64,000 bases of DNA. Source: Candidatus Latescibacterota bacterium. Its GTDB lineage: Bacteria; Latescibacterota; UBA2968. The notes under the pieces were generated by a model, which was given only the letters and a program-made list of their open reading frames with translations, ran no database searches and was not told where the DNA came from. A program made the position numbers and the translations under genes. The stretch spans positions 384,001 to 448,000 of the forward strand of contig OZ240241.1 of the NCBI GenBank assembly GCA_965198115.1. Direction: 5' to 3'. Shown piece after piece: positions 20,991 to 47,993 of this stretch (positions are counted from its first letter, which is position 1; every line of letters starts with the position of its first letter).

Positions 20991-22556
20991 TTGAAAGTGT
21001 TCACATCTACTTTGGACGTCGACGACCGGATCCGCCGGCACATCGACACCCTCGGCTTCGTTTCCCTCTCCGCCTACAAGCTATGGTACAGGCGCAACGG
21101 CTTCTCGATGTCCTTGGATAAGTCGCCCGACGATCTTCAGACGGAAATCGACCAGTTCACCGCCCCAACCGCACCCTCTGATCCCCGTATCGACAAGAAT
21201 CACTCGCCCCGACGCGCCGAATACATACGCCGCATCGCCGACGGCGAGTTTGAGGGTCAGCCCCTCAGCTCCGGGATGTCATCAATCCGGAAGCTCTTCG
21301 AGGAGGTCCGTAACGTGGACGGCGCCCACTCCGCGCTTCAGCGCCTCCTCCTGCACGTCGAAAAGTACGGCGACCTGCTTCACACAAAGACCGTCTTCAA
21401 TCGGCTCGGCAATGGCTGGCGCAACCAGCTCATCGCCGGCTTATCGCAGCTCGCGCGGTATCACGGAAAATGGATCCGCCCAGTCGAGGAGTGGTTCCCG
21501 ACCCAGCACGGCCGCCACCAGGAGCGGCAGTTCTTCGAGCTCGCCGAGCACCTGTTCATTCGCTACGAGATGCCTCGAACGCTCCATAATGCCTGGTTCG
21601 AGCTGGACGACGAAGAGCGCCACATTCAACAGGGATGGATCGTGCACATCGCGGATGGTAAAAACATTCGCGCGGCGGACAACCTGCCGTTCGCGCTCAC
21701 GAAACGCGCGGCTCACATCTTCACGAATTCGAGGGCCTTGGCGCCGCCGCTGATCGCCCTGCGCGACGCTCAAATCCACGCAATCGGGACCGTCCGTCAC
21801 TTTTCCTGGCATCTGTCGCACAACGAGTACATCTACGGGCGGGAGCACGCCGACTTTTGGACCGGGATCGTCCACTTCTTCCTGAACAACCCGATGCTCG
21901 AGCGGAGCTACCTCTGGCCGATCATCAACTATATCCATCACCAGAAATTCGTCCCTCAGCGGATCCCACAGCCAGACGGGACGGTCGTCGAGCGGCCGGC
22001 GGCGCATCCGAACTTCTGCATCAAGAGCCGCAGCATTAACCGCCTGATCCAGGAAGTGGACAACTGGCACGAAACAATCACGGGTGAGGAAAGTGAAAAG
22101 GTCCAGCAGTGGAAACCGACGGACTTCGGCTCCTTCGAGCTGGAAGAATACATCGAGGAGCTGAAAGTTAAAGTGAAGTGGACGGTCGAAGAACTGTATA
22201 CGTCCTCGCTTCTGTATCTCGAGGGACGTCGCCTCCACCACTGTGTGGGTTCCTATACGCGAAGGTGCGTGGCGGGCGAAGCCGCCATCTTCTCGATCAA
22301 GGCCCAACCGATCCTGAAAGACCCTGCCCCGGACGACGAGGAGCCGGAGAGGACCCACGTTCTGACTATCGCCATCGACCCGAAGAAGCGGCAGGTGACT
22401 CAGGCCCGCGGCAAGTTCAACCTCCAACCCGACGGGAAGGTCACCCGGACAAAGGCGCGGAAGACCAACGGGCCGTATCAGATCCTCCTTCGCGAGTCCG
22501 CGAGGATCCTGGCCCAATGGCGCGCCCGAGAAGGCATCAGCTACGGCCAGAGTTGA
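20991..22556 (+). CDS. PcfJ domain-containing protein
   Basis: C-terminal L..EGRRLHHCVGSY..C..G..IFS, LTIAID, QARGKFN; central G.NIR...TKRAAH motif. Confidence 0.8.
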   Translation: MKVFTSTLDVDDRIRRHIDTLGFVSLSAYKLWYRRNGFSMSLDKSPDDLQTEIDQFTAPTAPSDPRIDKNHSPRRAEYIRRIADGEFEGQPLSSGMSSIRKLFEEVRNVDGAHSALQRLLLHVEKYGDLLHTKTVFNRLGNGWRNQLIAGLSQLARYHGKWIRPVEEWFPTQHGRHQERQFFELAEHLFIRYEMPRTLHNAWFELDDEERHIQQGWIVHIADGKNIRAADNLPFALTKRAAHIFTNSRALAPPLIALRDAQIHAIGTVRHFSWHLSHNEYIYGREHADFWTGIVHFFLNNPMLERSYLWPIINYIHHQKFVPQRIPQPDGTVVERPAAHPNFCIKSRSINRLIQEVDNWHETITGEESEKVQQWKPTDFGSFELEEYIEELKVKVKWTVEELYTSSLLYLEGRRLHHCVGSYTRRCVAGEAAIFSIKAQPILKDPAPDDEEPERTHVLTIAIDPKKRQVTQARGKFNLQPDGKVTRTKARKTNGPYQILLRESARILAQWRAREGISYGQS

Positions 22557-31571: not shown

Positions 31572-31600
31572 TTGACGCTCCTTCAAAGCACGTCTATTTT
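31572..31600 (+). promoter_or_regulatory. Sigma70 promoter of tRNA-Leu
   Basis: TTGACG-17-TATTTT, 21 bp upstream of the tRNA. Confidence 0.6.
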
Positions 31601-31621
31601 CCCCGAAGTTGAAGGAACGAT

Positions 31622-31708
31622 ACCCGGGTGGCGGAATTGGTAGACGCAGGAGACTTAAAATCTCCCGGCCTTCGGGTCATGCCGGTTCAAGTCCGGCTCC
31701 GGGTACCA
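31622..31708 (+). tRNA. trnL: tRNA-Leu(TAA)
   Basis: Acceptor ACCCGGG/TCCGGGT, D-loop GGCGGAATTGGTAGACGC, anticodon arm GGAGA-CTTAAAA-TCTCC, long variable arm, GGTTCAAGTCC, encoded CCA. Confidence 0.97.
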
Positions 31709-31729
31709 GCTTAAGTATCAGTTTGTATT

Positions 31730-31781
31730 AGAGTTGCGTGTGATTCTCGCGTCCTCTGGACGTGAGAATCACCACAACTCT
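31730..31781. terminator. Long hairpin after the tRNA
   Basis: AGAGTTG..GTGATTCTCGCGTCC-TCT-GGACGTGAGAATCAC..CAACTCT. Confidence 0.55.
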
Positions 31782-31883
31782 TGGCTGTGATATCCATAAA
31801 GTATCCATCGAGGCCGGCTTCCTCACGAGCGTGGCGGCAAGTCTGAGCGCACCGGCCGAAAGCTGACGCCCAAGCAGATAACG

Positions 31884-32417
31884 ATGGCCAAAGAAACGAT
31901 CGAGGATCAGGGCAACCTGATCGAGGCGTTCGACAAGGCTTTAAAGCAGCTCCGCCAGGACGCGGGTATTTGGGAAAAGGAAGACAGCACAGGCCGGAAC
32001 GTCTTCACCGGCGATTACTATCCCGAAAAGCTGAGGAAGTTCGGAGCCGAAGCGGTTGCCGATTCCACGATGACGGCAAAGCAGTGGGCCAGAAAGCAGG
32101 CGGCAGAGAATCTTCAGCTCGACCAGGACGGGCTTGGCGGCGACCAGGTGGGCTTCCAGGAGCCCGGCATCCCCGAGGGTGGCAATGTTGCTGCCCCCGA
32201 TTTTTCGTCCATCGTGCATTCCCGTATCGCCTCGGGTGTCGATCCGGTCCAGGATACGAACTTTAAGGAAGTCCTCGAGACGCCCCCTTCGCCGGTTCCC
32301 ACATCGACAGACACGGTAAAGTTCTTAAAGAAGAAGGAAGATGAACTCGTAGGGCGCGGATACACCAGAGAACAGGCCCGAACGATGATCGAAAGGGCAC
32401 TTGCCAAGCAAGGATAG
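31884..32417 (+). CDS. Phage-like hypothetical protein, probably 5' truncated
   Basis: The frame upstream of the ATG reads GKSERTGRKLTPKQITMAKETIEDQ, a module repeated inside the next gene; stop lies 2 nt before the next ATG. Confidence 0.65.
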   Translation: MAKETIEDQGNLIEAFDKALKQLRQDAGIWEKEDSTGRNVFTGDYYPEKLRKFGAEAVADSTMTAKQWARKQAAENLQLDQDGLGGDQVGFQEPGIPEGGNVAAPDFSSIVHSRIASGVDPVQDTNFKEVLETPPSPVPTSTDTVKFLKKKEDELVGRGYTREQARTMIERALAKQG

Positions 32418-32419
32418 CA

Positions 32420-35400
32420 ATGGAATTTGCCTCTCTTGACAGCCTCATAGAAACAGAGCGTAAGAGGTTCGACAGGCTCAACGCCCTGATCGACTCTGAA
32501 GCGGATGCCTTCAAGATCGAAGACCCCGTTCAGCGTCAAAAGGTGAAGTCTGATGCGCTGACAAGCCGGTTGGCCAAAACCACGCCCGTCCGTGAAACCC
32601 CCGAACTTGAAGACAACCTTTACGGCCGCGATGAGTTGCCGACACCGACACCGCCGAAACCCCAAGGCATCGGCGCGGAGTTCGTGAAAGGCGTCAAAGG
32701 AGCAGCTACAGGCGGCATTCCGGCGATGGCGGGGTCCTCTATCCAGATGGGGGCAAGACAGCTCGAGGGTCTTTCTGAGCCCAAGACGTTCTTTGACTAC
32801 GTCGCGAAAGCAGCCTTGACGGTGGCTTCTCCTGCTGTCAGCGGTGCTCTGTCCTTCACATCGAACGAGACCAAAAAGGCTGCCACAAACTGGCTCCGTG
32901 AGGTCGGATCAAACATCCGGGAATATGGACGGAAACGACAGCTGGCAAACGCACCCGAAGTGACGCTCGCCGATGCGATCGAAAACCCCAGGAAGTTTGA
33001 CAGGTGGGCCGCCTACGCCTTGGGATCTGGCGGCGTCTACATGGCCCCGTCGATGGTGGGCTCCCTGATCTTCGGCCCTGCAGGGGCCATCCTGCCCTCC
33101 TACGCTCTGGCCCACGGCGAAATTTCCGATGAATTGATCGAGGAGGGAATTGAAGATCCCGCCTTTGCCGCTGCACTTGCGGTGCCGGTGGCCGGGCTCG
33201 ATGCGATCGGCGCCACTCGTGCCACAGCACCCGTGCGGAAAGAGGCCATCAAGCGCCTCATAAAAACCGGGATGACCAGGACGCCGTTGCGCGAGGTACT
33301 CGGGGGAGCAGGGACCGAGAGCGCAACCGAAGGCGGACAGGAACTGATGATGGCCATTGCCAACGGCCTCCGTGCGGACAAGAGCTGGGACACGATCTGG
33401 GAGGATGTGAAGGTCCGCGTGCCCGAGGGGATGGCGCAAGGCGGCTTGGTCGGCGGAACGATGACGGCGGGAACGACACTCGCCGGAAGGCTCCAGAAGG
33501 GTCAAGACCTGACCGACGAGCAGAAGACACAGCTTGAGGCCGACATCGAAGAACTGGTAGCCACCGAGCCGGTCGCCGAGCCTGAGCCGGTCGCCGAGCC
33601 TGAGCCGGTCGCCGAGCCTGAACCAGCCGAAGGTTCTCAGGTCCCCATCTTGGGTAGCCAAACCGTCATAGAGGAAATTCGCCGGGAGCTGACTGGGCGA
33701 CAAGACGTGATAAACCGCGCTACTGCTATGCTCGAATCCGGCAAGTCTGAGCGCACCGGCTACAAGCTGACGCCCAAGCAGATCAAGATGGCTGAAGAAA
33801 CGATTGAGGAGCAGAACAACCTGATAGAGGCGAAGCTGAAAGAAGTGGAGCGGGATTTCAACAAGGGCACCGCCGACAAGCTGAGAGCGGAACTTCAGTT
33901 TGAACCCAAAGCTGCCCCTCCAAAGAAGGCCACTGAGGAGGAGCCAGCTATCGAGGAGCCGGCTGCCGAACCCGCCGAGCAGCCGGCACGCTTGAGAGAT
34001 AAGTGGAAAAGCGATCTTCACCGCCTCGACGCGGAGATCCACGACCTTCAAGATGCGCGAGACGCCGTCGACGCGATGCCGGCTCGATGGGAAGATCTAC
34101 AGCCTCTGTGGAAAAAGCACGACAGTATTGAAAAGATGGTCGACGAAGCCAACGAGAAGGGACCCCTGGGTCGATCCGTCAGGATTGATCGAATCGAAAA
34201 GGCAATCACGGATCTCGCGGCCGGTATCGAGGATAGGAGAAGGCAACAGCAGTCTGAAGCCGCTGAGGAAGCGCCCGCCGATGCGCCCATCGTCCTTGAA
34301 GGTGCAGATGCTACCGAGCCCACCGCCACTGAGGAGCCCACCGCCGCAACCCCGACAAAATTGACCTCAGGCGCTTGGGTTGCTCGTGTCCAGAGCGCAA
34401 CCAGGCCCGAGCACGGTGACGAGCTCACGATCACCACACGGTCAGGAAAAACCTGGACCGCATACGTTCTTTCCGTTGAGAGTGTCACCCGCGACGGGGC
34501 GTTCGTCGTCTCCACCACAAAACAGCGTCCCATGCGTGCGATCGTCGTCCCAGAGGAGGAGCCTACCGCCACGGAGGAGCCTACCGCCACGGAGGAGCCC
34601 ACCGCCGTCGATGACATCCTCAAGACCTTCAACGACAAGTTCGTGAATATCCCCTGGGAGGACGCGGACCGGGTTCGACGCCTCATTGCAAAGGAGATTC
34701 CGGCCGAGGTTGCCGAGGACACCGCCTATCGCAACGTCCGGGAAAGCTCCGACATGCAGAACGCCTGGATCGAGCATGACGAAGCCCTGAAGCGCGTGAT
34801 GACGACGGACGTGCTCAACGACGACGTGCAACTCTACAAGGAGTTCACAGACAACGAGGGATTCCGGCAATGGCTCACGGATAAAGTTTTCGAGATGACC
34901 TATAAGCCTGCAAAATGGTCTTTCGAGCCCGTCTTCCCAGCAGCTACCGGCAGCGCCCTCAATGAGGACGCACCACCTACCGCGCCTGCCACTGAGGATG
35001 CGCCCACCGCTGCCGAACCTACCGCCCTTGATACGATGAAAAGCGAGCTTCAGCGCCTCGATAAGAAGATCCTCGACCTGCGAGGACCTGACACGACATC
35101 AGCTCTATGGGCAGAGCACGACAGGCTCCGAAAAAGAAAGACGGAGATTCAAAAGATGATCGAAAAAGCCCCAGGTATTCGGGGCCTGGGTCATGCCAAC
35201 ATGATCAATCGAATCGAAAAGGCAATCCAGGATCTCACGGTCGAGATCCGCAAGGCTGCACCCACCAAGCCGGCCGCCGAGCCCACCGCTGCCGAGGCGA
35301 TGACGGAGAAGTGGAAAGACGAGCTTATGCGCCTCGACGTGGCGATTCTCGACCTGGCTCGCGATGACGTTTCTGGCGTGACTGATCTACGGGCAGATCA

Positions 35401-35875
35401 CAGCAGGATTTTCGAGATGATCGAAAAGCTCCCAAAGGAGCAAGTCGAACAGGTAATCACGGATCTCGCAGCCTCGGTCGATGATCTTCAAAGACGCCAG
35501 CAGGCTACAGCAGAAGGGGAGCCCGCCGAGGCCGGCGAAGATGCACAGCCTACCACACCCACCGAGGAGCCCGCCGATGAACGAACACGCAAAGAAGGAG
35601 AACCTGATGGGGTTCGGGTGGATGGCGATGAACCACTGGGAGGAGTTTCTACCACGGATGTACAAGAAACTGAAGGAGGAGGGGACACTGATACAGAGGG
35701 CCTACGAGGCCCAGGAGATGACGACGGATCTGGTGATGCGTCTGACCGACAGGGGGAGGATGCAGATGCACGAGGCGAAGGAACTGGCCCTACCCGAGTG
35801 GATACTCCTGCCAGCAGAGAGCGAGAGCGACGACCTGCCATAAAGGGCGGACTTCACGGCCCCGGAGGGCTTTGA
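32420..35875 (+). CDS. Large polyvalent (virion-injected-type) protein, N-terminal part
   Basis: Gly/Ala-rich hydrophobic N-terminal region, EPVAEP/EEPTAT linkers, three helical repeats and an HsdR-C-terminal-like domain; continues into the MTase after a +1 shift near 35844. Confidence 0.75.
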   Translation: MEFASLDSLIETERKRFDRLNALIDSEADAFKIEDPVQRQKVKSDALTSRLAKTTPVRETPELEDNLYGRDELPTPTPPKPQGIGAEFVKGVKGAATGGIPAMAGSSIQMGARQLEGLSEPKTFFDYVAKAALTVASPAVSGALSFTSNETKKAATNWLREVGSNIREYGRKRQLANAPEVTLADAIENPRKFDRWAAYALGSGGVYMAPSMVGSLIFGPAGAILPSYALAHGEISDELIEEGIEDPAFAAALAVPVAGLDAIGATRATAPVRKEAIKRLIKTGMTRTPLREVLGGAGTESATEGGQELMMAIANGLRADKSWDTIWEDVKVRVPEGMAQGGLVGGTMTAGTTLAGRLQKGQDLTDEQKTQLEADIEELVATEPVAEPEPVAEPEPVAEPEPAEGSQVPILGSQTVIEEIRRELTGRQDVINRATAMLESGKSERTGYKLTPKQIKMAEETIEEQNNLIEAKLKEVERDFNKGTADKLRAELQFEPKAAPPKKATEEEPAIEEPAAEPAEQPARLRDKWKSDLHRLDAEIHDLQDARDAVDAMPARWEDLQPLWKKHDSIEKMVDEANEKGPLGRSVRIDRIEKAITDLAAGIEDRRRQQQSEAAEEAPADAPIVLEGADATEPTATEEPTAATPTKLTSGAWVARVQSATRPEHGDELTITTRSGKTWTAYVLSVESVTRDGAFVVSTTKQRPMRAIVVPEEEPTATEEPTATEEPTAVDDILKTFNDKFVNIPWEDADRVRRLIAKEIPAEVAEDTAYRNVRESSDMQNAWIEHDEALKRVMTTDVLNDDVQLYKEFTDNEGFRQWLTDKVFEMTYKPAKWSFEPVFPAATGSALNEDAPPTAPATEDAPTAAEPTALDTMKSELQRLDKKILDLRGPDTTSALWAEHDRLRKRKTEIQKMIEKAPGIRGLGHANMINRIEKAIQDLTVEIRKAAPTKPAAEPTAAEAMTEKWKDELMRLDVAILDLARDDVSGVTDLRADHSRIFEMIEKLPKEQVEQVITDLAASVDDLQRRQQATAEGEPAEAGEDAQPTTPTEEPADERTRKEGEPDGVRVDGDEPLGGVSTTDVQETEGGGDTDTEGLRGPGDDDGSGDASDRQGEDADARGEGTGPTRVDTPASRERERRPAIKGGLHGPGGL
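35577..35843 (+). CDS. Small helical protein overprinted on the polyvalent-protein linker
   Basis: GAGGAG before ATG 35577 and AAGGAG before ATG 35607; W/M/Y-rich sequence (HWEEFLPRMYKKLKEEG...EAKELALPEWILLP) over a low-complexity host frame. Confidence 0.6.
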   Translation: MNEHAKKENLMGFGWMAMNHWEEFLPRMYKKLKEEGTLIQRAYEAQEMTTDLVMRLTDRGRMQMHEAKELALPEWILLPAESESDDLP

Positions 35876-37661
35876 GGCCGAGATCGAAAAGGGCGGGCAG
35901 AAAACCAAGTATCGCAAGAACGTGGCCGCCGTTAAACTCCTGAAGACGCTCGAAGCCGAAAATCGCGCCGCTACCCCAGCCGAAAAGGAGACATTGGCCC
36001 AATACACCGGCTGGGGCCACTCTCCCCAAGCGTTCGTTTATACCCTACAGGAGCGCGCCAGGCTGAGACAGCTGTTTCCCGAGGATCAGGCCGAAGGGAT
36101 TTTCGACCAGTGGAACAACGAAAAATGGGAGAAAGAACAGGCCGAGCTACAGGATCTCTTTACCGAAGATGAGTACACTTCGGCGCGGGACTCGATCGCC
36201 AATGCCCACTACACGAGCCTTCCGGTGATAAGGTGGATGTGGGATGCCACCCAAAGGTTCGGCTTCCAGGGCGGGAAGATTCTCGAACCGGGTCTTGGCA
36301 TCGGCAACTTCTTCTCGGTGATGCCATCAGGAGAGATGAGGGGGAAATCAAAACTCACCGGTATCGAGATGGACGACCTCTCCGGCCGCATTGCTCAAAA
36401 GCTCTACGAGCGGGCCGATGTGCGTATCTCCCCTTACCAGAAGACGCGGCTCCCCGACGGTTATTTCGACTTGGCCATTTCCAACGTTCCCTTTGCCGAT
36501 GTCCGAATTCAAGACAAGGCTTACAAGGAACAGCTGACCCTCCACAACTATTATTTCCGTAAGTCTTTGGACAAGGTGAGGCCGGGCGGGGTCGTGGCCT
36601 TTATCACGTCGCGCTTCACGATGGACGGTTCCAAAAATCAGGAATTCCGCCGTCGGATTTCTGAGGAGGCCGAGTTCATCGGCGCGATCCGGTTGCCCAA
36701 CACGGCCTTTAAGAAAAACGCCCACACAGAAGTCACGACCGATGTGATCTTTTTGCGCAAGCTCAACGCCGGCGAGGCCCCCACCGGAGAGAATTGGGTC
36801 GACCTTGTCGATAAGAAGATCAAAGACAAAGAAGGCCGACCGGTCGAAATGGCACTCAATTCCTACTACGACCGGCACCCCGATATGATGATGGGCCGCC
36901 TCACGGCCACAGGGTCGATGTATAGTGCGGGAGAACCCACCCTTGCCCCCTACGGCGATCTTGACAAGCTGATGGCAACGGCCCTTGAAAAGCTGCCCGA
37001 GAATGTAGTGGCTGGGCCCGAGTCGAGCCTGTCCAAGCCGGCTGAGGAGACCCTACTGGCCCCCGACAGCGTGCGAGAAGGGCAGTTCGTTGTCAACGAA
37101 AACGGGGATTTGACCCAGAATTCTAAGGGAAAGTTGGAAGCCTACAAGGCTCCCAACGATACTGCCGTCCTCCGCATCAAGGGGATGGACAGCATCAGGG
37201 CAAAGGTGCGCGACCTGCTTTTCTCCCAGACCGAAGGGATCGAGGAAGCCGATCTCAAGAAGAAGCAGGCGAACCTTCTTAAGACCTACAAGTCCTTTGC
37301 CAAGAAATACGGCCCCCTCAACAACGCGGTCAACAAGCGGCTGTTTTCCAGTGACCCCGATGTGGCGTTGCTTTCGTCCCTGGAAGTCATGGACTACGAT
37401 GAGTCTGGAAAGAATTTCGCAGAGATCGAGACCACCCCTCAGCAATCTTTGAAAGCCATACCTGAAGGAAAGAGGAACACTGAGTTGACGTCCATGGCGG
37501 GCGCGATGCGGAGTAGAGGGATGAGCGGGACAGAGATCGCCGCTGCACTTAACGTCGCAAATCGAGAGCGCTGCCAGCCTCCGCTACCGGATGAGGAAGT
37601 TCACTCTATAGCCCTCAGCATTGATCGCTACGAGGCCGGCTCGCCGGGGGAAGGAAGATAG
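35844..37661 (+). CDS. DarB-like N6-adenine DNA methyltransferase, helicase part missing, fused to a PriCT-1-like domain
   Basis: GGQKTKYRKNVAAVKLLK, YTGWG, NAHYT, LEPGLGIGNF (motif I), SNVPF (motif IV), GAIRLPNTAF; tail IPEGKRNTELTSMAG...N..CQPPLPDEEV. Confidence 0.85.
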   Translation, partial: RADFTAPEGFEAEIEKGGQKTKYRKNVAAVKLLKTLEAENRAATPAEKETLAQYTGWGHSPQAFVYTLQERARLRQLFPEDQAEGIFDQWNNEKWEKEQAELQDLFTEDEYTSARDSIANAHYTSLPVIRWMWDATQRFGFQGGKILEPGLGIGNFFSVMPSGEMRGKSKLTGIEMDDLSGRIAQKLYERADVRISPYQKTRLPDGYFDLAISNVPFADVRIQDKAYKEQLTLHNYYFRKSLDKVRPGGVVAFITSRFTMDGSKNQEFRRRISEEAEFIGAIRLPNTAFKKNAHTEVTTDVIFLRKLNAGEAPTGENWVDLVDKKIKDKEGRPVEMALNSYYDRHPDMMMGRLTATGSMYSAGEPTLAPYGDLDKLMATALEKLPENVVAGPESSLSKPAEETLLAPDSVREGQFVVNENGDLTQNSKGKLEAYKAPNDTAVLRIKGMDSIRAKVRDLLFSQTEGIEEADLKKKQANLLKTYKSFAKKYGPLNNAVNKRLFSSDPDVALLSSLEVMDYDESGKNFAEIETTPQQSLKAIPEGKRNTELTSMAGAMRSRGMSGTEIAAALNVANRERCQPPLPDEEVHSIALSIDRYEAGSPGEGR

Positions 37662-37664
37662 TTG

Positions 37665-37725
37665 ACCAGCTTTAGATCTGGTGGCCGAGAGGCCGTGGGG
37701 GTTCGAATCCCCCCCTTTCGCACCA
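37665..37725 (+). other. 3' half of a tRNA-Leu(TAG-like); att-site relic
   Basis: CCAGCTTTAGATCTGG, variable arm GGCCGAGAGGCC, GGGGGTTCGAATCCCCC, ...TTTCGCACCA; no D arm or 5' acceptor strand. Confidence 0.8.
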
Positions 37726-37756
37726 ATTATAAACACCATAATACAGGACAGGAATT

Positions 37757-37795
37757 TACGGAAGGGCTCCCCGCTTTGAGGAGCCTTTCGTATTT
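37757..37795 (+). terminator. Hairpin after the tRNA fragment
   Basis: TACGGAAGGGCTCC...GGAGCCTTTCGTA-TTT. Confidence 0.55.
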
Positions 37796-37937
37796 GGCAG
37801 TAAAGTTCAGTGTCCATAGAAGTGTCCACGAGCCTACACGAAAACCCCAGTTTTCAGAGGGCCGTAGGGGGTAGCTCCCCCGCACGGCTCCGTCTCGCCG
37901 GCGGCCCTCGTAAACCCTCAGACGGGAGGGAAAAGCG

Positions 37938-38381
37938 ATGCTACCTGCGGAAGACTGGAATCGGCACAACCGTGAGCTCATCTCTCAGCCAACACCTGGC
38001 GCGCCCGCAGATTGCAACCAGTTGAGAGAGGATATCCTCTCAGGTTTGGAGAAGTTTCGTCGGTCGAGCATCGAGCCCTCGCCGCTTTGGACGGACGTGC
38101 CGTTCACCGAGGAGCTGTTTGCTGATCTTGACGAGGATGATGTTGACCTGTATCAGCGCTGTCTGTGCCCGGAGTATCTGCGAGTGAACGTCTACTTTAC
38201 TCTCTTAACGCTCGTCCTCTTCGTCAGCGAGCAGGCCATCGCCCACGGATCCCCTCAGCAGGTATCCGAGATCGTTGAGACACTCACCCGCCTTTCCAAG
38301 AAGCACAGCGGAGTTGGCCAAGTGCCCGTGGCCGGTTATCTTCTTTCTCTGCAGCAACGCTTGGACAGCGTATGTCGGTAG
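37938..38381 (+). CDS. Hypothetical protein
   Basis: GGGAGG RBS; 147 aa. Confidence 0.55.
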   Translation: MLPAEDWNRHNRELISQPTPGAPADCNQLREDILSGLEKFRRSSIEPSPLWTDVPFTEELFADLDEDDVDLYQRCLCPEYLRVNVYFTLLTLVLFVSEQAIAHGSPQQVSEIVETLTRLSKKHSGVGQVPVAGYLLSLQQRLDSVCR

Positions 38382-38388
38382 GGAATCC

Positions 38389-38874
38389 ATGCAGGCAATG
38401 AGGAAGGCCGAGGAAGCTGGGCTTGCGGTCGCCATCGAGCGGGCGACTGAACTCACGGCGGCCATCCACCGGATAATCCGATTCGTGTCGCCCGGCCACG
38501 TGCTGAACGATTTCCTTGGAGCGATTGATGCAGGCGATGAGAGCCTGCGACTCTGGAATGTTGTAGGAGAGAAGATCCAGGAACTCGGACTGAGAAGACC
38601 CCTCCAGGAGCTCGAGGACAGTATCGAACTAGAGTTGGGACGTCTCCAAGCAGAGCACAAAGAATGGGCTGAAAGGGTGTTCGGTGATCGACCGAGGCAG
38701 ATATCCTACTTGCCTCAGGACGTGTATCGTGCTTGCCAGGGCATCGCGGAAGCCTTTGAGCTTGGACGGGGATCTGACTATGGGACCCGCAAGGACGCTT
38801 GTGAATTGCTGACTCTTTGCGGAATCGGGATAGATGTCGACACACTTCGGAAGTGGCGTTCTCGGAACCCGTGA
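38389..38874 (+). CDS. Hypothetical protein with a possible C-terminal HTH
   Basis: Follows the previous ORF closely; ends RKDACELL...IDVDTLRKWR. Confidence 0.55.
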   Translation: MQAMRKAEEAGLAVAIERATELTAAIHRIIRFVSPGHVLNDFLGAIDAGDESLRLWNVVGEKIQELGLRRPLQELEDSIELELGRLQAEHKEWAERVFGDRPRQISYLPQDVYRACQGIAEAFELGRGSDYGTRKDACELLTLCGIGIDVDTLRKWRSRNP

Positions 38875-39125
38875 ACATGCCCCCTTTGCGAGAAAGTGAG
38901 ATGTTCACGGGTTTTATGAGAAGTTGGACTAGTGTCGTGTCCCGCGAATAAGTTTTAGAAGTCTGTTGAGTTTATCGAGGACCGAGTCAGCGGTTGCCGT
39001 CCACACGAAAGGCTTTGAGTTCTGATTGTATTGGTCTGTGAACTTCTGGATGCAGGTGATCAGATCCTTGACGTTCCGAAAGGTTCCTCGTCGGATTGCT
39101 CTTTGTGTGATGATGCCGAACCAGA

Positions 39126-45683: not shown

Positions 45684-46519
45684 ATGAAACTCAAGAACAA
45701 ACATTTCGAGGCAATCGAGCAGATCGTGGCCTGTCAAATTGAGGGCGACGGCATCTCGGAGATGGCACGTCGTTGTGCGGTGTCACGCCAGACGATCTAC
45801 AGCTGGCTGCGCGATTCAGCCTTTCGGGAGGTGCTCGATCAGCGTCGTGCCCTGTGGGATCGCGACATCGGCCAAATCAGGTTGACGCGCCGAAGGGCAA
45901 GGATTGAGGATTTGGCTGCGATCGCCGAGGATCCGGCGACGAATGACTCGATCAAGCTGCGGGCTTTGAAGCAGATAGCCGATGAGACGGCCGCTGACGT
46001 GGAGGGGATGTTGGAAGCCCTGCAGGAGCAAATTGATCTTCTCGAGCGCCAGATCGCCGGTGAGGTCGGGTTGGCCCTTCACCGTCCAGAAGGCAAAAGT
46101 CCGATGAAACTCAAGAACAAACATTTCGAGTCGATCGAGCAGATCGTGGCCTGTCAAATTGAGGGCGACGGCATCTCGGAGATGGCACGTCGTTGTGCGG
46201 TGTCACGCCAGACGATCTACAGATGGCTGCGCGATTCAGCCTTTCGTCAGGTGCTCAATCAGCGTCGTGCCCTGTGGGATCGCGACATCGGCCAAATCAG
46301 GTTGACGCACCGAAGGGCAAGGATTGAGGATTTGGCTGCGATCGCCGAGGATCCGGCGACGAATAACTCGATCAAGCTGCGGGCTTTGAAGCAGATCGCC
46401 GATGAGACGGCCGCTGACGTTGAGGGGACGATCGAGTCCCTGCAGGAGCGAATTGATCTTCTCGAGCGCCAGATCGTCGGTGAGGTCGGGTTGGCCCTTC
46501 ACCGTCCAGAAGGCAAAAG
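45684..46519 (+). CDS. Phage HTH protein (phBC6A51/small-terminase-like), in-frame 420-bp tandem duplication
   Basis: MKLKNKHFE...ISEMARRCAVSRQTIYxWLRDSAF occurs twice, at 45684 and 46104; a third homolog lies at 50372. Confidence 0.7.
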
Positions 46520-47368
46520 CACAATCCGTGGTCACGGTTGGTCGGGGAAGCGGAAGCTTACTATCCGACGCTCGCTCGTGACGGTGCGGCGGACACGGGC
46601 TATGAGGTGTGCGGGTCGATGGTCGTCGCCGTTAATGCGGCTGAGAGGGACACTTTCGAAGAGGCGAGCGTGGGTGTGGTGCGGGGGGATGGACGCGGCG
46701 ACAAGGCCGCCGTCGTGGATGGCGCGCGTGCTGGAGCAGTCGGGCGTGGCTCACGGGCTCGAGGTGCGGCGCGCTTCCGTCGATCGTGTCGAGGTCGAAG
46801 GTGGGACAGCGACAGCGGTTGTCGCGGACGGTGAGGAGCTGACCACGGGGCTCCGTCGTCATCGCCGGGGGGCGTGGTCTAACGCGTTTGGCGAGCAACT
46901 CGGGGTTCGTCTCCCGGTCGGGCCGATGCGGGGGCAGATCGCGCATCTGGATCTTGGGGAGACGGATACATCGGGCTGGGTCATCGTGAGCGGGTTTCGC
47001 GGTCACTACCTGGTACCGTGGGACGACAATCGTGTGGTTGCCGGTGCGACACGGGAGATGGATGCGGGCTATCGGGTCGAGACGACGGTCGAGGGGATGC
47101 TCGAGGTGTTGTCCGAAGCGATCCGGGTCGCCCCCGGTCTCCGAGGAGCTCGGGTGAAAAGGAGTTTCGCGTCGGACTGCGGCCGGCGACGTCCGACGGC
47201 TTTCCCATCATCGGCGTCATCCCCGACGCAGCGAATGTGCACGTGGCGACGGGTCACGGCCCGATGGGGCTCCACCTGGGACCCTACAGCGGAAAGGTTG
47301 TGGCCGATGCGATTCTCGGCGAGAGAGACGAGACTTTTGCCGTGTTTGGAGTCGAACGATTCGGTTGA
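46520..47368 (+). pseudogene. FAD-dependent oxidoreductase (glycine oxidase/DadA-like) fragments
   Basis: GAWS, PMRGQI, YLVP, VAGAT, VGLRPATSDGFPIIG, ATGHGPMGL across frames. Confidence 0.78.
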
Positions 47369-47993
47369 TGCGACGAGACAGCTACTGAGGACACAGAGGT
47401 GATGGAACAAAGTTCCAATGACCACCGCGGTACCAAGGTCTTTGACGTAGCAAAGTGAGGTGAAGTGATGGAGTACCGAAAACTCGGGCGAAGTGGGGTG
47501 AAGGTTTCGGGTGGATCATCGAACGTCACGGCTACAAGACGCCCTGAACAGGCTAGAAACGCACTCACGGCGACTCGAAAGGCCGCCTGAATACACTCAC
47601 CCGAGTGTCCAGACAACCGCGGGCTTTACACTCCTGCTGTGCGGTCTCGGGATTCGCGCGACCCGGCTAAGGACGCCGAACCCGTCCGGCAGGTACCGCA
47701 TGGGAGGGTGTCCAGAATCTTTCACATAGTGAGAGCGGCAACCCTCGGTCTGCGTGATGACGCCGCCGAAGCGTCATGGCGACGTCGAGGGCGAGGAGAC
47801 GTCGGTAGGAAGGACTCGTCGCGCTCGAGCGTCGACGCCGACGCCTCCGCGAATTAAGAGCGGATCCTTGAACACACGTCCGGAGCCAGGGGATTGCACA
47901 ACCGGTCTTTTCTACAATCGTCCGGGTGTCCTCCGACACGGAGCTGCTCAGGGCGCAGCACGCGACTTGCCCGCGGATCGGTCGCGGTCTAGA

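Follow-up and report, generated by a model that had tools for sequence, protein, structure and literature searches.

The closest described relatives of the proteins considered here are the virion protein DarB of phage P1, which gives DNA protection in cis from type I enzymes, and the methylase-SNF2 helicase dyad of polyvalent proteins (Iyer et al. 2017, PMC5512222). Polyvalent proteins, that paper proposes, may undergo processing by peptidases; they have in common with the two families described below a giant multi-module architecture and a proposed counter-restriction role. The words 'hsdr' and 'decoy' occur 0 times in its main text. Ocr and ArdA, in the same text, inhibit type I enzymes by direct binding. 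On the side of the restriction enzyme, the C-terminal region of the EcoR124I HsdR subunit is 'proposed' or 'believed', in the available text of PMC5248579 and PMC2878639, to bind the HsdM-HsdS core. Full-length, cleavage-dead HsdR is described as trans-dominant in EcoR124I, competing in trans (available text of PMC5248579), and a C-terminal HsdR mutation as changing R1 to R2 assembly (available text of PMC12707154). In another defence system, the stand-alone structural mimic AcrIF3 follows, as presented in the available text of bioRxiv 10.1101/453720, a proposed logic by which a docking piece of the defence complex is turned into an inhibitor. In the accessible text of the open papers searched, no mention of an HsdR tail within a DarB-like protein was found.

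The window, a stretch of 64,000 nucleotides (positions 384,001 to 448,000 of contig OZ240241.1) from a Candidatus Latescibacterota bacterium, lies in an 8.4-Mb single-contig genome. Within it, positions 34610-34903 are, by sequence comparison, the 3' end of an hsdR gene, in frame within a mobile-element gene. Translation of the forward strand yields the 98 residues quoted in the preliminary description, residues 731-828 of an open 1151-aa frame (32420-35875, here P0002), and the linkers on either side consist to 62% and 72% of Pro, Glu, Ala, Thr and Asp. A similarity search with the isolated domain, a check that description had proposed, returned 218 homologues. The best 120 of the 218 are 72-79% identical to the block; all 120 are type I HsdR subunits or pieces thereof, each at least 90% covered by a full-length HsdR, and in all 120 the match ends 3-21 aa before the C-terminus. 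The block is thus homologous to the C-terminus of full-length HsdR as encoded in hsdMSR operons, the genes of the host operon having been typed by PADLOC. The earlier claim of an HsdR C-terminal domain of about 98 aa between Pro/Glu/Thr linkers was therefore right; the further claim that it ends where HsdR proteins end holds for the extreme C-terminal region, but the block stops about 11 residues before the HsdR C-terminus.

The host's own intact hsdR is 88.1% identical in nucleotides to window positions 34614-34908 (295 nt), and a second, frameshifted hsdR 3' remnant in the genome is 86.9% identical to the block. Since the nearest of 79 gap-free hsdR blocks from other genomes, those of Acidobacteriota MAGs, reach only 84-87%, the host's own hsdR is the closest donor seen; its clade extends to these Acidobacteriota MAGs. 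The window block differs from every hsdR by at least 11%. It corresponds to the last 100 or so residues of HsdRs with PF04313, PF18766 and PF22679, such as the host HsdR and the plasmid HsdR of Meiothermus taiwanensis. Unlike those proteins, P0002 is not a whole HsdR: its similarity to hsdR is confined to the block, it has no Pfam or NCBIfam HsdR match, the nuclease and SF2 motor domains are absent, and no hsdM or hsdS adjoins it. The block itself was matched by no family in Pfam, PHROG, NCBIfam or PADLOC. Six HsdRs of the block's family (P0259, P0296, P0299, P0301, P0308 and P0390) carry C-terminal extensions past the block, one of them with Peptidase_S24.

An AlphaFold2 model from 40 sequences shows the block as a six-helix domain (mean pLDDT 91.6); because the alignment is mostly native HsdR, the model speaks for compatibility with that fold and not for folding of the window copy. 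Foldseek (PDB, BFVD) and VIA-align gave no clear match for the block (best Z 5.9). It occupies the same position in the type I R subunit as the EcoR124I HsdR C-terminal region, and this equivalence is one of position only, since the searches run gave no match to that region in sequence or fold; the host HsdR matches EcoR124I only at residues 139-438.

The mobile-element remnant holding the block is 6 kb long and runs from a tRNA-Leu(taa) gene (31622-31708), likely its integration site, to a 98.4% copy of a stretch that starts in another tRNA-Leu gene (Table 1). No Pfam, PHROG or NCBIfam family was assigned to P0002, whose relatives are P0243, P0267, P0244 and P0245, and the 205-codon frame at 31800-32417 has no Pfam or PHROG match. 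A DarB-type adenine methylase with its N-terminal helical domain is present at the locus and matches 125 phage records; the similarity to phrog_10089 (E 1e-154), which it shares with the complete relative P0395 introduced below, links both to the P1 DarB dyad in the text of PMC5512222 and upholds the DarB-like context recognized earlier. The 120 best relatives of this methylase extend a median of 1117 aa beyond the point at which the window copy breaks off. A genome-wide search with P0395 failed to turn up a helicase half; Pfam and PHROG revealed no structural genes in the 6 kb of the remnant, and no promoter-like site was found in 31600-38000.

Table 1. Features of the mobile-element remnant, in positions of the window.
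Feature	Position	Strand	Basis or remark
tRNA-Leu(taa), left border	31622..31708	+	ARAGORN
5'-truncated 205-codon frame, same element	31800..32417	+	Holds 87% copy of 33739-33832
1151-aa ORF P0002, N-terminal part of giant polyvalent protein	32420..35875	+	Modules split by acidic Pro-rich linkers
Helical repeat 1 of three related repeats	33989..34255	+	68.6% nt match to 35030-35243; boundaries by eye
Small module, no family	34361..34552	+	In P0002, absent from P0243 by alignment
Captured HsdR C-terminal block, 98 aa	34610..34903	+	One-residue insertion, 19 departures from closest-HsdR consensus
Helical repeats 2 and 3	35015..35509	+	Repeat 2 35015-35263, repeat 3 35291-35509
Nested 88-aa ORF in second frame over linker end	35577..35843	+	phrog_938 positions 2073-2159, E 1e-5
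Frameshift zone uncoupling P0002 from methylase frame	35820..35845	+	Alignment with copy near genome 7497.9 kb
DarB-like adenine methylase part, ends before SNF2 helicase	35844..37391	+	phrog_10089 1576-2066 of 4647, E 1.1e-154
PriCT_1 domain replacing helicase	37452..37634	+	Pfam PF08708, E 4.7e-12; frame ends 37661
Right border: 98.4% copy of genome 4955255-4956524, starting inside tRNA-Leu(tag)	37666..38938	+	blastn and ARAGORN

In another genomic copy and in P0243 the linker reads in frame into the methylase start, and short pieces of the polyvalent gene are scattered elsewhere over the genome. With its frameshift at about 35820-35845, its helicase lost and its pieces scattered, the window locus is a dead remnant of one giant gene. 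Because the locus is broken it departs from DarB in two respects, having neither the SNF2 helicase nor a single polypeptide; a captured HsdR tail further sets it apart from the dyad as described. Placement of the domain within a DarB-like protein, as first claimed, is correct for P0243, which is joined to the methylase, but the window ORF is now in a separate frame. The claim of delivery with a DarB-like methylase is not supported for the window copy, which is frameshifted, truncated and evolving on a branch with dN/dS about 1; a gene so broken can no longer bring in the block together with a functional methylase-helicase.

Several further features of the remnant and its surroundings were recorded. 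A rough DNA alignment of helical repeats 1 and 2 counts 43 nonsynonymous against 6 synonymous differences, which hints at diversifying selection. The module at 34361-34552 found its best Atlas score (0.81) among viral hypothetical clusters, a lead only, and the Atlas searches as a whole gave nothing usable. The nested 88-aa ORF (35577-35843) has a dN/dS of 0.5 in its own frame versus 1.5 in the linker frame; its start and frame are preserved in the copy near genome 7497.7 kb, and it weakly matches the C-terminal end of PHROG 938 giant proteins, making this a dual-coding stretch just before the DarB methylase. At 37452-37661 the DarB-like methylase is joined in frame to a primase C-terminal PriCT_1 domain. 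A 6-kb segment holding another piece of the polyvalent gene occurs twice at 99.9% identity (L002:8257-14323 and G000:C1:8405245-8411309). Mobile-element debris elsewhere in the window includes a PcfJ-like frame (20991-22556) and a frame joining terminase-small-subunit-like HTH units to a piece of an FAD oxidoreductase (45684-47402). Twenty tRNA genes are arrayed on one strand at G000:C1:2870558-2872531.

Runs X1 and X2 represent one sample, probably the one from which the genome came; their contigs cross the junctions on both sides of the block as well as the downstream frameshift, with 0-1 differences, and no single listed contig spans the whole block. A second sample yielded six exact pieces at low depth, with neither junction bridged. 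It is extremely improbable that the fusion is an assembly artefact in which hsdR reads were merged with the element. Such a merger would be favoured by the great depth of the hsdR family in the same sample, but the bridged junctions speak against it, as do the distance of the block from every hsdR and the presence of its derived changes in P0243 and P0267, which come from other assemblies. In run X2, 1937 contig pieces fall on the host's hsd locus at 97% identity or more, their summed depth giving no copy number. At that locus hsdR (1009 aa) and hsdS are intact, and a transposase-like insertion divides hsdM into two parts. The insertion (L001:13665-17115) is a single one of a multi-copy kind, and run X3 contains a weakly supported joint without it. 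The orphan, frameshifted hsdR 3' remnant of locus L003 (G000:C1:7746427-7746742) starts 7 nt upstream of the capture point in the window, and short open frames with the same block are common in relatives; together these suggest a breakage hotspot at the domain boundary of the HsdR block.

A search of the whole library with the 1151-aa protein returned 1095 matches, and the block is present in 144 of the best 150. It was counted as embedded where at least 60 foreign residues lie upstream and at least 60 downstream. By this measure it is embedded in six of the 144 listed matches, four of which (P0243, P0333, P0362 and P0375) are DarB-type; the other two were read by eye as HsdS/HsdR deletion fusions. 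In a further 20 of the 144, foreign sequence lies upstream and the protein ends at the block. All fused relatives are metagenome proteins known at the protein level only. They form two families. Family A comprises, besides the window copy, P0243 (549 aa) and P0267 (248 aa) from other assemblies, in which the block lies between the same repeats and shares the insertion and several substitutions of the window block; the three blocks form a clade with support of 0.998. Family B comprises P0362, P0375 and P0333, the last a fragment without an enzyme domain placed here by its flanks, and the cluster mates P0393 and P0395, the latter a mate of P0375. P0395 is a complete methylase-SNF2 protein of 2625 aa in one intact frame (phrog_10089 at aa 14-1706, E=0), with the block at 2038-2137, after the helicase and within acidic Pro-rich linkers. 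Identity to the window copy is 36% for its methylase and 48% for its block. The metagenome polyvalent proteins with the same insertion that the preliminary description had said should be sought were thus found in both families, and its proviso that the fusion might be unique to this locus does not hold.

Searches elsewhere produced no further case, and HsdR-tail fusion in DarB-like proteins is rare. None of the 120 closest DarB relatives of the window methylase carries it (0/120). The phages with the insertion that had likewise been anticipated did not appear, either in the GenBank phage set, whose one real match is an ordinary hsdMSR operon, or in the IMG/VR loci recovered. There, the block alignment found 19 loci, all 19 ordinary HsdR, and two motif patterns found 35 loci, a set overlapping the 19, of which 34 lie in HsdR frames and one is a remnant; when IMG/VR was scanned with the N-terminal part, with the block, with the methylase or with the family B alignment, no relative was confirmed. 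HsdR-type matches were all that 167 other genomes of the phylum, among which no fusion was found, and sixty relatives contained. The three matches to the family B query in JGI metagenomes were ordinary HsdR (3/3), and among plasmids (31 and 32 matching records) those with a name are named HsdR. At E 1e-33 family B was not found in 351, 201 and 55 genomes of three other groups, in which one DarB match was without the block in the 4 kb examined. A search of long proteins (P0002 640-960 against 2016-5000 aa) gave 0 of 3037 candidates and was insensitive, since P0395, at 2625 aa, carries the block.

The captured blocks of both families begin at the SNI position and end at TY. In a 45-row tree, family A falls inside the close hsdR clade (98/99) and family B on a long stem (0.58), and a single clade of A and B is compatible with the tree (p-AU 0.426, the bootstrap being not fully settled). 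Two independent captures are favoured, though not proven, by the different position of the block, the 36% identity of the proteins that hold it and the absence of family A's insertion from family B; a single capture followed by transfer between genes is possible.

Within family B the block is the best-conserved region, at 96-98% versus 93% for the helicase and 77-82% for the linkers and first tail. P0333 and P0362 differ at 4 of 34 strongly conserved columns versus 23 of 61 others (Fisher 0.0056, Mann-Whitney 0.0002); true HsdR pairs at a similar distance average 2.0 in this comparison. W16 and G12 have been lost by family B members. The pattern points, at the protein level, to purifying selection on the family B block after capture.

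The window copy has a different history. Measured against the two host hsdR copies, its branch has 17 changes at about 225 nonsynonymous sites and 5 at about 63 synonymous sites, together with a one-codon insertion and one ambiguous codon (18 nonsynonymous if counted). Its dN/dS is about 1; with 18:5, values of 0.2 (P=0.0004) and 0.3 (P=0.008) are rejected, and 0.5 (P=0.11) is compatible, as is 1. Three-point distances give the window a dN of 0.082-0.095 and a dS of 0.05-0.10, and the host hsdR a dN of 0.006-0.019; beside these, 44 pairs of intact hsdR alleles have a median dN/dS of 0.25. Two changes of the window branch, found as well in hsdR allele L038, may have been inherited. The block is off the consensus of the 120 nearest HsdRs in 19 of 95 columns (true HsdRs: mean 5.1, maximum 11) and alters three of 29 invariant columns (G12V, A43V and R53W). 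Between the window and P0243 conserved columns are not spared (5/33 versus 13/60 others, P=0.32); between the window and close alleles the counts are 3/34 and 14/61 (P=0.07). The block is nonetheless the best-conserved region of family A, at 82.5% versus 59-78%. It has been under weak constraint on its branch, and the window copy is a relic. In simulations of the block's neutral divergence of about 8%, the long frames stayed open in 1/400 and 0/400 runs, and the block alone in 49%. Because long frames almost never survive such change, the block most likely diverged inside a still-working gene, the alternative being drift before insertion. Of the other two explanations entertained for the window block, a diversity-generating retroelement was ruled out since the changes are not adenine-specific, and unique neutral junk was discarded once the same block had been found in other DarB-like proteins. 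The preliminary description had also allowed for an absence of purifying selection, and here its caution was apt for the window branch but not for family B; with the fusion recurring and family B under selection, neither of these two objections to its reading stands.

It is rather unlikely that the block is a tolerated passenger with no anti-restriction role, whereby abundant hsdR 3' fragments recombine into low-complexity linkers and persist in frame because a folded domain is harmless and the frame must stay open. The neutral rate and altered invariant residues of the window branch fit such an origin, as do the commonness of orphan hsdR 3' remnants and chimeras, the gain and loss of neighbouring modules between relatives, and a genome littered with short pieces of the element. 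Against it, all four embedded cases outside restriction-modification genes among the 144 listed matches are DarB-type, and in family B the block is better kept than the helicase, its conserved columns spared, for which selection to stay folded could account in part. The best reading is that the HsdR-tail block is a recurrently retained module of DarB-like proteins.

Net charge is -10, -9, -9 and -10 in those blocks of both families that have diverged further, compared with an average of -1.9 (sd 1.9, minimum -8) over 107 HsdR blocks; those of P0243 and P0333 are not unusually acidic (-6 and -3). At the conserved Arg53, the window copy and every family B member shown carry another residue. The EcoR124 C-terminal domain has a role in DNA binding, and the block could accordingly have been reused as a DNA-binding or structural domain that helps the methylase-helicase hold incoming DNA. 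We consider this improbable. Purifying selection in family B is silent on which function is kept, but basic residues have been lost and net charge approaches -10 in the derived blocks of both families; acidity and the Arg53 change would sooner be expected if a surface facing DNA had been lost than if the block served to bind DNA. The acidic character is shared with Ocr and ArdA, from which the block differs in kind, these proteins being mimics of DNA and the block a copy of a host subunit domain.

Our tentative reading, plausible but held with reserve, is that the HsdR tail copied into DarB-like proteins serves as a decoy and would sit where the R subunit docks on the host methylase core. This reading rests directly on the source gene, the in-frame position, the near-identical boundaries in both families and the purifying selection in family B; delivery with the DNA is carried over from P1 DarB, docking from the position in HsdR and the EcoR124I work, and competition is likewise inferred. 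In its favour, the target is common, given the spread of the donor clade over Acidobacteriota MAGs and the contig pieces on the host's hsd locus in run X2. The sequence of events would be as follows: the element would arrive in cells of a community where the hsd family of the window block is abundant; the giant DarB-like protein would be delivered together with the element's DNA; the HsdR tail would then, by analogy, take the R-docking site on the host methylase core; and no cleaving R2M2S complex would form while the incoming DNA is methylated. A quite improbable variant is that the block acts as a tether that holds the DarB-like enzyme to the host methylase, with element DNA being modified at the host's own target sites, or shielded around them, as a result. 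The low copy number to be expected of a stoichiometric decoy that travels within a methylase-helicase polypeptide would favour the tether, as would the protection in cis by DarB; the proposal, in the main text of PMC5512222, that polyvalent proteins are cut into parts by peptidases tells against it. For the decoy reading, the nearest parallel is AcrIF3: if anything, the HsdR tail would work like AcrIF3-type mimicry set in a DarB-like chassis, unlike AcrIF3 being embedded in a giant enzyme and having its source at 88% identity in DNA.

That DarB-like giants have repeatedly taken over the docking tail of whichever type I R subunit dominates locally, and deliver it with their DNA as a dominant-negative assembly decoy, is possible, though somewhat doubtful. 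If true, it would constitute a subunit-mimicry mode of anti-restriction, the restriction-modification counterpart of AcrIF3, with a donor gene still 88% identical. Anti-restriction proteins in the cited papers, so far as their consulted text goes, use DNA mimicry, shielding or methylation. Capture of a docking domain from the host would add a further route; it would also provide a compact and concrete starting point, open to experiment, for asking how type I enzymes are overcome by DarB-like proteins. The capture boundaries delimit a domain of about 100 aa, for which we found no Pfam family or solved fold, in a widespread HsdR family. This HsdR tail is a candidate assembly interface and a possible tool for lowering restriction barriers in laboratory strains.
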